A DNA stretch of 63,181 nucleotides from Verrucomicrobiales bacterium (GTDB taxonomy: Bacteria; Verrucomicrobiota; Verrucomicrobiia; Verrucomicrobiales; SLCJ01): positions 1 through 63,181 of the forward strand of contig JBJTQJ010000100.1 in the NCBI GenBank assembly GCA_046075565.1, in the 5' to 3' direction. Below the pieces are notes generated by a model. The model was not told where the DNA came from. It searched no databases and was given only the letters and a program-made list of their open reading frames with translations. Made by a program: the position numbers and the translations under genes. Positions 57,660 through 61,471 of this stretch are shown here, piece by piece. Within the stretch, counting starts at the first letter, position 1, and every line of letters begins with the position of its first letter.

Positions 57660-58106
57660 ATGCCCGTCAATTCCGATACACTCTATTCGCTTGTCTACAT
57701 CAGCCGCGAGACCGCGCCGATGTCCCGTCAGGAATTGCTCGCCTTGCTCGCCCAGAGCCGGCCGAAGAACCAGGCCCGGAATATCACCGGCTTGCTTGTG
57801 CATAAGGCCGGTCACTTCCTCCAGGTCCTTGAAGGCCCGAAGGACAATATGGAAGCCCTGATGGCAACCATTGCCGCCGACTCACGCCACCAGAAAGTTT
57901 CAATTCTCGTGCGTGATGCCATCGAGCAGCGGCGCTTCGGGAATTGGTCCATGGCCCTCGCCGATTGGCCGGAGGAAGACGCCGCCACCACCAAGGCGTG
58001 GTCCCACCTCCTCGATGAATTCGCGCGTTCGCAGGCCCGTTTTGGTCCCGTCGCAGGTCTCATCGATTTCACCATCTCCCTGGCCGGAAAAAGATATCTG
58101 GAGTGA
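57660..58106 (+). CDS. Short BLUF blue-light photoreceptor
   Basis: LVYIS (Tyr), N...ITGLL, FLQVLEG (Gln), DSRH, RRFGNWSM. Confidence 0.92.
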   Translation: MPVNSDTLYSLVYISRETAPMSRQELLALLAQSRPKNQARNITGLLVHKAGHFLQVLEGPKDNMEALMATIAADSRHQKVSILVRDAIEQRRFGNWSMALADWPEEDAATTKAWSHLLDEFARSQARFGPVAGLIDFTISLAGKRYLE

Positions 58107-58116
58107 GGGAATTTGG

Positions 58117-58573
58117 GATTGAAGATTGAAGATTGAAGATTTTAGGTGGCCAGTCCTGCCGGGATCGCCGACAGCCTGCCCGCCGGAGATTTTGGCCACG
58201 CTGGGATCGCCGACGACCTCGTCGGCATGTCTGAGTCGTAGTGCGAAGCCACTCTGCTGAAGCGGAACGCCTTCGCGTTCCGTCGGGAAAGGACGCGGCA
58301 GCTCGCACAGCATCCCACATCTCCCCCGCGAGCATCGGACACGACCCATCGGGATCGCGTCCCTCCGTCTTCCAACTTGACTCACGAACCGGCCACGCTG
58401 GGATCGCCGACGTCCTCGTCGGCATTTTTGATTCGTAACGCGAAGCCATTCTCCTGTAGCCCCGACATGGTCGGGGACGCGTCGGGAACGCCTTCGCGTT
58501 CCGTCTGGAAAAGACGTCACTCGTAGGCTGAGTTCCGGAGTCCCTCACCCGACACCGGAAGCGGTGCCGCAAC
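58117..58573. repeat. GATTGAA heptamer run plus BIME-like REP mosaic containing a ~100-bp direct repeat
   Basis: (GATTGAA)x3; 58194-58296 repeated at 58391-58516 with an extra hairpin inserted; further hairpins at 58336-58367 and 58550-58573. Confidence 0.8.
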
Positions 58574-58583
58574 CGAAGGCACT

Positions 58584-60215
58584 CTACCCTAACAACCCCA
58601 CGATCTCCCTCAATCCCTTCACGGTAAAATCCGCCTCCACCTCGATGGGCCGGTGATTGGCGAGTCGGATGGTGCGCAGTCCGGCGCGGCGGCCCATTTC
58701 GATATCCCGGTCGGCGTCGCCGATCATCCACGACGTGGCAAGGTCGAGTCCAAGCGATTCGGCGGCTTCAAACACATGAGATGGATCCGGCTTCGCTCCC
58801 GGACCATCGGAACTTGCTCCGGTATAGGCATAAATCGCATCAAAGGCCAAGCCATCGGCAGCCAGCTCTTCCTGCATCTTCCGGTGAATGGTCTCCAGAA
58901 CCTCCTGGCTCATCAACCCTTTCCCGACCCCGCGCTGACTCGTGATCAAAACCGTGGCCCGTCCGCCTGTTTTGGCGGCGCGCAGCACCTCGCGGATGCC
59001 ATCCTGAAAATGGAAGTCCTCCCAGCGCGTGACGTAATAGCTTTCACCCGGATCATTGACCACTCCGTCGCGGTCGAAGAAGACAGCCGGACGCAGGAGG
59101 CGTGGAGTGGGATCATCGTAATTCAGATCGCCGCGTATCAGAATATCGTCGCCGTATCGATGGTGCGTGACATCAGTTAGACGGATTCCGTTTTTCGGAG
59201 ATGCCATGCCCAGTCCTCCGGTGCTGGGTTTGTCGGTGCCGGTGAGCAGGGGAGCAAACCAACCCAACCATTCATCAATGAGCCGCGCATCCAACAATGA
59301 ACCAACCAACCGCCCGCCCGCCTCGACCAGCAGGCGGTGGATGTCAAACTCCCGGGTCAGTTGCTCCAAAGCCTGCAACCAATCCGGGCAAGTAATGATC
59401 TTTACCGCTGGTGGTAAAGCCGGAAGCTCATGATTCTCCCCGAGGCAAAGCACGACCGTGCGGTCCGCGAATTCATCATGAAAAACCCGGGCCTCCGCGG
59501 GCACTTTGCCCGAGCGGGTGGCAACAATCCTCCAGAGGGGAGCTTTATCCCCATTCGGATGCGGCACGCGCAAGGTCAGGGCGGGGTTGTCGCTGCGCAA
59601 CGTCTCCGCACTTGTCAGGATGCCCTCCACTTCCGCCCGCAGGGTTTGCACGGCCTCCCTGCTGGCCGGACCGGTCAGCCACTGGCTTTCTCCGGCCGGG
59701 CGGGTAACCGCGCCGTCGAGGGACATCGCCGATTTCGCCAGCACCCACGGACGACCCCGCGTCATCGCGCTGGTGAATCCTCGCAGCAATCGAAGCGCCT
59801 CCATTTCCATGAGCCCGCTTTCCACTTGGATCCCAGCGGCGGCGAGCACGGCATCGGCCCGTCCGGCGTGAAGGGGGTTCGCATCCACGGCCCCATAGAC
59901 GACCCGCGCCACCCCATGGGAAATGAGTCCTTCCGTGCAGGGAGGCGTGCGTCCGGTCGTGCAACAGGGCTCGAGGGTCACATAGACCGTTGACCCGCGG
60001 ACGGCCTCCGGGCCGAAACGGGCAACCGCCTCGGCCAGAGCTTCCCGCTCGGCGTGGGGTGCCCCGGCGCGCCGGTGCCAACCGCTCCCGAGCAAGCGGC
60101 CATCTTTCACCACCACGGTCCCCACGGGCGGGTTGGGCGCGGTCAGCCCCAGGCCTTTGGCTGCCTCGGCCAATGCCTGCTCCATCCATCCCCGATCGTT
60201 CATTTCCATGCCCAA
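58584..60215 (-). CDS. ribD: RibD (deaminase/reductase) fused to a C-terminal HAD-IIIA/GmhB-like phosphatase
   Basis: PNPPVG, HAE, TLEPC..GRTPPC, SLDG, VEAGG; then in frame FFDRDGVVN, ITSQ, KP, IGDADRD. Confidence 0.9.
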   Translation of the reverse strand: MGMEMNDRGWMEQALAEAAKGLGLTAPNPPVGTVVVKDGRLLGSGWHRRAGAPHAEREALAEAVARFGPEAVRGSTVYVTLEPCCTTGRTPPCTEGLISHGVARVVYGAVDANPLHAGRADAVLAAAGIQVESGLMEMEALRLLRGFTSAMTRGRPWVLAKSAMSLDGAVTRPAGESQWLTGPASREAVQTLRAEVEGILTSAETLRSDNPALTLRVPHPNGDKAPLWRIVATRSGKVPAEARVFHDEFADRTVVLCLGENHELPALPPAVKIITCPDWLQALEQLTREFDIHRLLVEAGGRLVGSLLDARLIDEWLGWFAPLLTGTDKPSTGGLGMASPKNGIRLTDVTHHRYGDDILIRGDLNYDDPTPRLLRPAVFFDRDGVVNDPGESYYVTRWEDFHFQDGIREVLRAAKTGGRATVLITSQRGVGKGLMSQEVLETIHRKMQEELAADGLAFDAIYAYTGASSDGPGAKPDPSHVFEAAESLGLDLATSWMIGDADRDIEMGRRAGLRTIRLANHRPIEVEADFTVKGLREIVGLLG

Positions 60216-60256
60216 CCATGCACCATCTGCGGTCCGAATGAAAAAAAATCACATTC

Positions 60257-60300
60257 TGTGCAAACGAACACTTGCCAAAGCCCGGGGATGGCGGTAAAGA
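60257..60300 (+). promoter_or_regulatory. Putative LexA (SOS) box and sigma70-type promoter of recA
   Basis: TGTGC-AAAC-GAACA (60257-60270), one mismatch to the verrucomicrobial TGTTC-N4-GAACA motif; TTGCCA-17-TAAAGA follows. Confidence 0.7.
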
Positions 60301-60427
60301 GTTCCCACGCCGGCCTGGAATTCCGGTTGTCCGCCCCCGGGCGGAGAACCAATCGCCCACCGCCCATGCGTGCCAAAATCAAACCACCAGACATCACCAC
60401 GAACCCACCCACGAAAGACCCACGACC

Positions 60428-61471
60428 ATGGCCAAAGACGACACCACCCAGGCGGACAAAGAACTCCAGCGCTTCCAACAGGAACGCCTCAAGAATCTCG
60501 AAAGCGCCATCGGCGAAATCAAAAAGGAATACGGCGAAGGCTCGATCCTCCGCATGGGCGACGGCCACCGCGTGGATGTGGACGTCATCCCCACCGGCAA
60601 CCTGCTCATCGACCGCGCCCTTGGCGTCGGTGGTTTCCCGCGCGGACGTATCGTCGAAGTGTTCGGCCCGGAATCGTCGGGGAAAACCACCCTCACCCTC
60701 ACGGCCATTGCGCAGGCCCAGAAAAAAGGCGGGCTCGCCGCCTTCATCGACGTCGAGCACGCCCTCGACCCGCAATATGCCAAACGCCTCGGCGTGAACA
60801 TGGACGACCTCCTCGTCTCCCAGCCATCCTCTGGTGAGGAAGCCCTCCGCATCTGCGAAACCCTCGTCCGCTCCAATGCCCTCGACGTCATCGTGCTCGA
60901 CTCCGTGGCTGCCCTCGTCACCCGCCAGGAGCTCGACGGCGAAATCGGCGATTCCACTGTCGGCGCCCAAGCCCGCCTCATGTCCGCCGCCATGCGGAAA
61001 CTCACCTCCATGATCGCCAAGGCCCGCACCGTCTGCATCTTCACCAACCAGATCCGGGAAAAAGTCGGCGTCATGTTTGGCAACCCGGAAACCACCCCCG
61101 GCGGCCGCGCCCTCAAGTTCTATTCCTCCGTGCGTGTCGATATCCGCCGCATCGGCCAAATCAAAACCACCGACGGCACTGTCACCGGCAACCGCACCAA
61201 GGTCAAAATCGTTAAAAACAAGGTCGCCCCGCCCTTCATGGAAGCCGAATTCGATATCATGTATAACGAAGGCATCTCCTCGACCGGTTCGCTGCTCGAC
61301 CTCGCCCTCGAGATGGACATCATCCAGAAACGCGGTTCGTGGTTCGCCTACAAAGGTTCCCAACTCGCTCAAGGCCGCGACGCCGCCAAAGACGCCCTCA
61401 AGGCCGACGCCGCCCTCTATGCGGAAATCGAGACCGAAGTCAAAGACCGCCTCGCCAAAGGGAAAGAGTGA
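60428..61471 (+). CDS. recA: Recombinase A
   Basis: [48 protein letters not shown]. Confidence 0.98.

Follow-up and report, generated by a model that had tools for sequence, protein, structure and literature searches.

A conserved RibD-HAD phosphatase fusion in Verrucomicrobiales and the likely role of its phosphatase domain as GmhB

Dephosphorylation of the RibD product (ARPP) is the one step of riboflavin synthesis that has no generally dedicated enzyme, according to the consulted portions of two reviews (PMC12051542, PMC13151069), which is why a phosphatase joined to RibD seems to offer the solution. Such a fusion is encoded in the window analyzed here, a 63,181-nt stretch of DNA from a Verrucomicrobiales bacterium (contig JBJTQJ010000100.1), and an earlier note on this DNA had proposed that its HAD domain was recruited as the dedicated phosphatase of the riboflavin pathway. 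We asked whether this domain belongs to riboflavin synthesis or to another pathway.

Architecture and conservation of the fusion gene

The gene lies on the minus strand (58584..60215) as a single reading frame without interruption, as the earlier note had described, and encodes 543 aa when read from TTG 60215 to the stop codon at 58584-58586. An ATG at 60209 (541 aa) is the more likely start codon, judging from the database copy of the same protein (P0002), which is 541 aa long. The first 360 aa make up a full-length RibD, as TIGR00326 (eubact_ribD) matched aa 11-359 across both the deaminase and the reductase, over profile positions 1-341 of 343 with 279.4 bits (cut-off 156.35). The deaminase domain (59892..60197; aa 7-108, Pfam dCMP_cyt_deam_1) carries the HAE motif (60048-60056; aa 54-56) and the PCx8C motif, PCCTTGRTPPC (59937-59969; aa 83-93). 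The H, A, E, and C residues of these zinc/catalytic motifs were invariant across 26 fused homologues. After the C-terminal reductase domain (59139..59750; aa 156-359; RibD_C, PF01872, 129.6 bits) and a short linker predicted to be ordered (59091..59138; aa 360-375) comes a capless HAD-IIIA phosphatase domain of the GmhB/HisB-N subfamily (58605..59090; aa 376-537), all on the minus strand. Its beginning near 59090 agrees with the earlier estimate of about 59095, and the HAD models of Pfam cover aa 401-516 of the fusion protein. In the predicted structure, 10-residue blocks around aa 361-380 had pLDDT values of 89-92, and the full-length fusion model reached a pTM of 0.87. Across the whole window no Rfam element reached the gathering score, and neither an FMN riboswitch nor any other Rfam element was detected upstream of the fusion gene (60150-60480) at E ≤ 1.

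The same fusion was present in all four sampled genomes of the window's family, with open frames of 554-609 aa, and one of these is a single-contig genome of 3.5 Mb. A further 29 protein clusters (P0003-P0031, one of which is a 306-aa fragment) contained both RibD_C and HAD Pfam domains at 44-85% identity; about 30 metagenomic protein clusters carry the fusion, down to 44% identity. On the HAD tree, RibD-HAD fusions were found at four or more places, namely the window's family and at least three other branches. The search for this architecture across genomes, which the earlier note had suggested, thus returned it well outside the window. An assembly or sequencing artefact, in which a stop-loss joined two genes in one assembly only, might have been suspected from relatives in other families, where ribD and the HAD gene are separate and often overlapping. 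However, recurrence in four of four family genomes, including the single-contig one, and in about 30 independent metagenomic clusters rules it out and leaves its probability negligible; the stop-loss or indel that had been named as a way to overturn the proposal was not borne out. The RibD-HAD fusion is genuine and new; no relevant report of a RibD-HAD or ribD-gmhB fusion was found in the limited collection of literature searched. The NCBI name of one homologue (P0025) covers only the two RibD activities.

Family of the phosphatase domain and its distribution

The four HAD catalytic motifs, which the earlier note had read as DRDG, TSQ, KP, and GDxxxD, are complete: DRDG, with the DRD of motif I, at 59064-59075, TSQ (motif II) at 58935-58943, the KP of motif III within 58788-58832, and GDADRD (motif IV) at 58704-58721, all on the minus strand. 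Residues D12, D14, T56, K106, D131, and D135 were invariant among 30 members of the HAD clade. The domain passed the cut-offs of TIGR01662 for HAD-IIIA proteins (74.5 bits, cut-off 44.6) and of TIGR01656 for the HisB-N/GmhB subfamily (99 bits, cut-off 84.15), and fell below those of the GmhB equivalogs TIGR00213 (81.4 vs. 149.6), NF006506 (85.4 vs. 178), and NF050049 (59.5 vs. 250). Its best solved relatives by sequence were GmhBs, from E. coli (3l8e, 62 bits), M. loti (2o2x), Burkholderia (4pnh), and Bordetella (3l8h), with HisB-N (2fpr) ranking after them. The domain model (pLDDT 95.8) matched the fold of E. coli GmhB with a TM of 0.88 and those from Bordetella and M. loti with 0.84, compared with 0.69-0.72 for HisB-N.

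Characterized GmhBs typically have a CxH/CxC zinc-binding cap and the Arg of an RKP motif. Alignment of the window's domain to E. coli GmhB bore out the earlier observation that the CxH...CxC zinc ligands and this Arg are absent; the zinc-cap position, a degenerate loop leading into motif III, reads YAYTGASSDGPGAKP. These losses were uncoupled from ribD linkage. The canonical short cap, CxH..CxC-RKP, is kept in the orthologues of family f6 and of genus g14 in family f5, and both the ribD-adjacent f6 orthologues and the RibD-fused P0030 retain it. Loss of the zinc ligands together with a change of RKP to AKP or PKP was also seen in orthologues unlinked to ribD (genus g6 and DUF2064-fused forms), the CxH/CxC motif is degenerate also in the gmhA-adjacent GmhBs of family f2, and M. 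loti 2o2x showed no CxH/CxC pattern in the alignment. We therefore rejected zinc-cap loss as a mark of recruitment to riboflavin synthesis; the divergent features of the domain are lineage traits that are not tied to ribD.

The genome that carries the window is 100% complete and has a GmhA-like gene (207 bits), a split HldE (kinase domain, 246 bits; adenylyltransferase domain, 164-167 bits), HldD (384 bits, above cut-off), and four to five GT9 heptosyltransferases (five GT9 matches). With the rest of the ADP-heptose pathway in place, it has need of a GmhB, and the fused HAD domain was the only GmhB/HisB-N-type protein found in it. In five of five fused genomes tested, the TIGR01656 cut-off was passed solely by the fused domain, and no separate gmhB, for which the earlier note had advised looking, was found in any of the five while the heptose pathway was present. 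E. coli gmhB mutants have been reported as leaky, so the domain need not be indispensable even as the only GmhB candidate. For other phosphatase jobs, the genome has at hand a PHP-type histidinol phosphatase (136.8 bits, cut-off 90.2) and seven other HAD_2 loci.

The distribution of the HAD orthologue was determined in 114 genomes from the families carrying this HAD clade (f1, f4 to f8). HAD and gmhA were both present in 98 genomes and both absent from nine, while six had only HAD and one had only gmhA; ribD was present in 113 of the 114, including all ten genomes without HAD, and eight of these ten also lacked the HldE kinase. Five of the six genomes with HAD and without gmhA are 81-86% complete, and in the sixth hldE lies where a contig ends; the lone genome with the opposite pattern is 75% complete. 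Two genomes considered as counter-examples (G018 and G007), in which HAD was present and neither gmhA nor hldE was found, were accounted for, both being 82-83% complete and having HldD and three to four GT9 genes. In G056, no GT9 match, no HldD, and no HAD remnant were found, and ribD was kept. The HAD orthologue thus follows gmhA and hldE, and not ribD, across these 114 genomes, among which kin are not independent and the ribD-linked families offer few cases in which HAD and heptose genes were independently lost together (one g14 subgroup, G056, and partly G128). The sister family f2 has a single homologue (29-37% identity), which adjoins gmhA in the classical arrangement.

Physical linkage to ribD was nevertheless common. 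Of 104 genomes, 61 had the HAD fused to ribD or following it on the same strand at a distance of at most 300 nt, and nine more had it within 301-1500 nt, giving 70 of 104 genomes, in five families, with the HAD no more than 1.5 kb downstream. Outside the order, a RibD match within about 2 kb was found at none of the 14 fetched loci of the HAD clade (other orders and classes); the neighbors at these loci were uninformative save for one SIS_2 (GmhA-type) gene. Members of this HAD clade are also found fused to DUF2064 and to a TsaB-like partner. In the same families, 18 of 19 sampled genomes have a fusion that covers both the HldE adenylyltransferase and PurN domains, the exception being the heptose-less G016 with PurN alone. 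Because of these partners, fusion in this clade does not imply a shared pathway.

Which pathway the fused phosphatase serves

We lean toward the view that the fused HAD domain is the lineage's GmhB, joined to RibD through adjacency. The domain would come from a subfamily of this phylum descended from short-cap beta-GmhBs, whose gene would in this order have long followed ribD directly, in many cases with an overlap. The two frames would then have been fused when ribD lost its stop codon, once in the window's family and on separate occasions in three or more other branches, to yield a three-domain protein. Its RibD deaminase and reductase would serve riboflavin synthesis, and its HAD domain would remove the 7-phosphate of heptose bisphosphate, the substrate that we infer for it, by the Asp-nucleophile, Mg-dependent chemistry of HAD enzymes. 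The fusion would then stem from the genes being neighbors that are transcribed together and not from a common pathway, and it more likely links two pathways than completes riboflavin synthesis. Counted against the GmhB reading were the equivalog scores below cut-off and the loss of the zinc cap and of the Arg of RKP in the window's family. A functional tie to RibD would also fit with the persistent ribD linkage (70/104), the four or more fusion places, the ordered linker, and the pTM of 0.87.

Such a tie is the core of a possible, although less probable, explanation in which the domain is still the cell's GmhB and also dephosphorylates ARPP, the tether giving local access to the substrate, so that the protein would in effect have three functions in riboflavin synthesis and a further one in LPS synthesis. 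Heptose bisphosphate and ARPP both terminate in CH(OH)-CH2-O-phosphate, which favors this explanation. The linkage and repeated fusions, together with the predicted linker order and full-length model, are consistent with this explanation, as are the precedent of HisB-N, which arose from a promiscuous beta-GmhB that was joined to the subsequent enzyme in a different pathway, as described in the part of PMC9798254 consulted, and the statement in excerpts of the two reviews that most bacteria have no known dedicated ARPP phosphatase (PMC12051542, PMC13151069). However, riboflavin synthesis does not depend on the HAD, as ten of ten HAD-less genomes keep ribD and the window's genome has its other HAD_2 loci; in G056, where the heptose pathway was lost, the HAD was not retained beside ribD. 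The clade's other fusions, including HldE adenylyltransferase with PurN, join unrelated functions, ribD was nearby at none of the 14 loci outside the order, and no FMN riboswitch was found upstream. The specific proposal that the tethered HAD is both the cell's GmhB and a pathway-resident ARPP phosphatase ("RibZ"), by virtue of its fusion to the RibD reductase, is doubtful to a slightly greater degree. If true, RibD-HAD would be the first trifunctional enzyme of riboflavin synthesis to occur in nature, and these bacteria would have the making of the LPS core coupled to that of flavins.

That the domain has left GmhB function altogether to act on ARPP only, with another phosphatase handling heptose bisphosphate, is improbable. 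The fusion to RibD, the scores under the GmhB equivalog cut-offs, and the lost zinc cap and Arg point that way, but the five fused genomes contain no second GmhB-type gene despite their heptose pathway, the presence of the clade tracks gmhA and hldE and not ribD, and the cap and Arg are lost in ribD-unlinked orthologues and kept in P0030 and the ribD-adjacent f6 forms. The dedicated role proposed earlier was accordingly not supported, as the domain is the sole GmhB candidate in a heptose-pathway genome and the ten HAD-less genomes all keep ribD, nine of them without gmhA. From the proposed recruitment for the riboflavin step, the conserved architecture and the tight ribD linkage (61/104 within 300 nt) stood, but the dedicated role of a domain diverged from GmhB did not. 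A histidinol-phosphate phosphatase of the HisB-N type is very improbable and was ruled out as an identity: the domain passes TIGR01656, HisB-N is its next closest family, and some beta-GmhBs have weak histidinol-phosphatase activity as reported in the consulted section of PMC9798254, yet TIGR01261 (hisB_Nterm) gave 48.5 against a cut-off of 140, the genome already has its PHP-family enzyme, and its single IGPD match is on a different contig from the HAD.

The comparative evidence cautions against reading the fusion as a shortcut to the missing riboflavin enzyme, as the domain is probably the one GmhB of the lineage and its occurrence goes with the LPS-heptose pathway. The HAD domain would be mislabeled if it were annotated by its fusion partner, and pipelines that name the protein RibD alone would leave genomes seemingly without gmhB. 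The clade offers a natural test case, in which one GmhB subfamily was repeatedly fused (RibD, DUF2064, TsaB-like) and lost its zinc cap in some families; these repeated fusions and cap losses make a direct biochemical test of GmhB promiscuity toward ARPP cheap and informative.

Comparison with known enzymes

Known ARPP phosphatases are free-standing and belong to the capped HAD-IA/IIB types, apart from the non-HAD enzyme of Aquifex. They comprise YigB/YbjI of E. coli, YcsE/YitU/YwtE of B. subtilis, PyrP2 of Arabidopsis, and a histidine-family enzyme of Aquifex, mostly from the HAD superfamily (PMC13151069, in the portion consulted), and those named in the consulted portions of PMC12051542 and PMC13151069 include none of GmhB/IIIA type and none fused to RibD. 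Compared with RibD/RibG, the window's protein has the complete deaminase and reductase, above cut-off, but bears an extra 170-aa phosphatase domain.

With GmhB, the window's HAD shares the capless C0 HAD-IIIA fold (TM 0.84-0.88), the DxD, T-x-Q, KP, and GDxxxD motifs, and its position as the sole such gene in a genome with GmhA, HldE, HldD, and heptosyltransferases; its sister-family orthologues retain the short CxH..CxC-RKP cap. It differs in being only 28-32% identical to E. coli GmhB and under the equivalog cut-offs, in lacking the zinc ligands and the Arg of RKP, in a loop after motif I that is two residues longer, and in being fused to RibD instead of free-standing or beside gmhA. The clade also parallels the origin of HisB-N from a GmhB. 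In HisB of gamma-proteobacteria (HisB-N with IGP dehydratase), a GmhB-derived HAD-IIIA domain is likewise fused to a biosynthetic enzyme of another pathway, and CxH/CxC motifs are lost in some members, as stated in the part of PMC9798254 consulted. However, in the HisB case the recipient retained a GmhB of its own while the copy in the fusion took on a new substrate, whereas here each genome has a single copy, fused C-terminally to RibD.

Architecture and conservation of the RibD-HAD gene

On the minus strand at 58584..60215, a single ORF without interruption encodes 543 aa when counted from a TTG codon; since the identical database protein (P0002) has 541 aa, the gene probably starts with the ATG at 60209. 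Pfam places a cytidine-deaminase-type domain at aa 7-108, RibD_C at aa 156-359 and HAD models at aa 401-516. With NCBIfam, the protein is a full-length RibD (TIGR00326, 279 bits for a cut-off of 156), and its C-terminal domain clears the thresholds for HAD-IIIA (TIGR01662) and for the HisB-N/GmhB subfamily (TIGR01656) and falls short of the equivalog thresholds for GmhB and HisB-N. These searches, together with the ORF scan, bear out the uninterrupted RibD-HAD frame described in an earlier note; all HAD motifs named there are present and, as it stated, neither the zinc ligands of CxH/CxC nor the arginine of RKP is found. In the full-length structural model (pLDDT 89.5, pTM 0.87), the linker is predicted to be ordered and the packing is confident. 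Upstream of the gene, neither an FMN riboswitch nor any other Rfam family was found. The intergenic region downstream (58158-58516) carries a two-copy direct repeat with internal inverted repeats (70 nt at 87% identity and 32 nt at 94%, spaced by about 197-221 nt), possibly a small repeat element or a pair of terminator-like structures. The convergent neighbour (57660-58106, plus strand) encodes a 148-aa BLUF protein, a blue-light sensor using FAD, and the presence of this flavoprotein beside a riboflavin gene is probably a coincidence.

The earlier note had also proposed a search for this architecture elsewhere. Among 5.8 billion proteins, 29 clusters besides the window's own protein share the RibD and HAD Pfam composition, with 44-85% identity and lengths of 505-634 aa in all but one; one cluster member comes from a single-contig 3.5-Mb genome, and ordinary RibDs (340-390 aa) rank below these clusters in the same search. 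Among 151 genomes sampled from the order (families are labelled f1 to f8 here), all four from the window's family (f1) carry the HAD domain within an open frame of 554-609 aa. A fifth fused form of 538 aa was found in G116, a genome of family f4 (locus L042:531-2144). With these occurrences, an artefact is effectively excluded, and the domain architecture is real and conserved.

Relationship of the HAD domain to GmhB

By sequence, the best solved relatives of the HAD domain are GmhBs, the heptose-1,7-bisphosphate 7-phosphatases of the LPS-heptose pathway, from E. coli (3l8e), M. loti (2o2x), Burkholderia (4pnh) and Bordetella (3l8h), with HisB-N next. A domain model from 30 clade members (pLDDT 95.8) gave a TM of 0.88 on E. 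coli GmhB and about 0.7 on HisB-N. A maximum-likelihood tree of 45 domains separated two groups (split support 99/98): clade A, composed of E. coli GmhB, gmhA-adjacent genes of the sister family f2 and a heptosyltransferase-fused form, and clade B, which contains all ribD-linked or ribD-fused HADs of the order. RibD fusions occupy at least four tree positions, namely the f1 group, G116/P0182 in f4, and the metagenomic proteins P0030 and P0031, which fall by an f6 and an f7 gene, respectively.

The canonical short cap (e.g. YACTHLSG..TCSCRKP) is kept in clade-B orthologues of f6 and of the f5 genus g14. The Cys/His ligands are lost in f4, f8 and f1, where RKP has become PKP, NKP or AKP. The same losses occur in orthologues that are not beside ribD (genus g6) and in the DUF2064-fused P0128 and P0161; they are seen neither in the ribD-adjacent f6 genes nor in the RibD-fused P0030, which retains a full CxC..CxC-RKP zinc cap. 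Because they are distributed by family in this way, the divergent features are lineage traits. Kinateder et al. (2023, PMC9798254) offer a precedent for CxH/CxC loss within the GmhB/HisB-N subfamily. As a separate observation, the HldE kinase of f1 and f8 scores 224-252 bits on TIGR02198 versus about 317-365 for full-length matches in other families (compared in G000, G006, G013 and G008), and a divergent heptose kinase is therefore found in the same two families whose GmhB zinc cap became GAKP.

Heptose genes, ribD linkage and other fusions

Of the heptose-pathway genes, the genome that contains the window (3.9 Mb and 100% complete) encodes a GmhA-like isomerase (NF010546, 207 bits), a stand-alone HldE kinase domain (C24:18233-19276, minus strand, 246 bits), an HldE adenylyltransferase domain fused to PurN, HldD (384 bits, above cut-off) and five GT9 matches. 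Its sole GmhB-type sequence is the RibD-fused domain. The check for a separate gmhB suggested in the earlier note found none in five of five fused genomes, where only the fused domain passes the TIGR01656 cut-off. Lumazine synthase is present, as are seven further HAD_2 loci that could be generic phosphatases. A histidinol phosphatase role is effectively excluded, as a PHP-family enzyme covers this step and the HisB-N equivalog score is below cut-off.

We searched the 151 genomes for HAD, gmhA, ribD and HldE kinase and restricted the counts to the 114 genomes of the clade-B-bearing families f1 and f4-f8. HAD was found in 104 and ribD in 113, the lone genome without ribD being 87% complete. All 10 HAD-less genomes keep ribD, and gmhA is missing in nine of them and the HldE kinase in eight. 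Two genomes depart from this pattern: G129, which is 75% complete, and G128, 92% complete, in which the kinase was found and gmhA was not. The genomes counted are kin, and few co-losses within the clade-B families are independent (part of g14, G056 and perhaps G128). In G056, gmhA, hldE, hldD and GT9 are all missing, and a convergent gene follows ribD with no HAD remnant. Six genomes carry HAD without a gmhA match: five are 81-86% complete, and in the remaining one, G086, hldE lies at the end of a contig. The most worrying HAD-bearing cases, G018 (fused form) and G007, possess HldD and 3-4 GT9 genes. By match coordinates, the single f2 homologue directly adjoins gmhA.

Linkage was scored from combined match coordinates, by how far downstream of a same-strand ribD match the HAD match starts. 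Among the 104 HAD-bearing genomes, this distance was at most 300 nt in 61, including the five fusions, and 301-1500 nt in nine more; in the others the genes lie on separate contigs (28), far apart or on opposite strands (5), or ribD is missing (1). Linkage extends across f1, f4, f5, f6 and f8, and the two genes overlap in several genomes, so that fusion by a small indel would be easy. Beyond the order, 41 of 251 genomes sampled from the phylum encode clade-B-like proteins, with no ribD nearby in any of 14 fetched loci.

Fusions in these lineages join apparently unrelated functions. In the same HAD clade, dozens of Verrucomicrobiales clusters carry an N-terminal DUF2064 (PF09837, TIGR04282-like) partner, and two carry a TsaB-like domain. 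The DUF2064-HAD proteins (about 384 aa; P0122-P0180, from many Verrucomicrobiales MAGs) have a C-terminal HAD 49-55% identical to the window's domain; in G124, the gene (L053:807-1973) has a metallophosphoesterase-like gene on one side and clpX on the other. For more distant GmhB homologues, the fusion partners are NTP transferases and a heptosyltransferase, as would be expected for the heptose pathway. Outside the window, the HldE adenylyltransferase-PurN ORF of the same genome (C24:22653-23837, equal to L012:1336-2520, plus strand, 395 aa) matches TIGR02199 at aa 56-193 (164.5 bits) and PurN TIGR00639 at aa 201-387 (216 bits, above cut-off). Of the 19 genomes sampled from f1 and f4-f8, 18 have one match that covers both domains, and the heptose-less G016 has PurN alone; the genes are separate in f2 and f3 (six genomes sampled). 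Thus, the families in which GmhB is tied to ribD are exactly those in which a second heptose enzyme is joined to a purine enzyme.

Role of the fused phosphatase

These results suggest that the HAD domain is probably the GmhB of this lineage and that it became fused to RibD through the long-standing adjacency of the two genes. The resulting protein would serve two pathways. The earlier note had instead suggested a dedicated phosphatase for the RibD product, 5-amino-6-(5-phospho-D-ribitylamino)uracil (ARPP); taken as an enzyme that has left the GmhB function, this is the least supported of three readings and appears improbable. In between, a GmhB that also acts on ARPP is a possibility we hold only tentatively. 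The persistent ribD linkage, the repeated fusions and the confident packing predicted by the full-length model would be consistent with it.

According to Hoffpauir and Lamb (2025, PMC12051542) and a 2026 Biochemistry review (PMC13151069), low-specificity HAD enzymes act as ARPP phosphatases in E. coli, B. subtilis, B. thetaiotaomicron and Arabidopsis, and Aquifex has one of the histidine family. The passages searched in these papers make no mention of a RibD-phosphatase fusion, and a full-text literature search returned nothing relevant; the architecture is apparently undescribed so far. It is likeliest to be RibD plus the cell's GmhB, which accounts for the seemingly missing gmhB in these genomes and warns against guilt-by-fusion annotation. 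The protein also provides a cheap test of GmhB promiscuity on the orphan riboflavin step. Here HisB-N, described in PMC9798254 as a promiscuous GmhB taken over by another pathway, would be a parallel, by analogy, for a RibD-HAD acting on both substrates.
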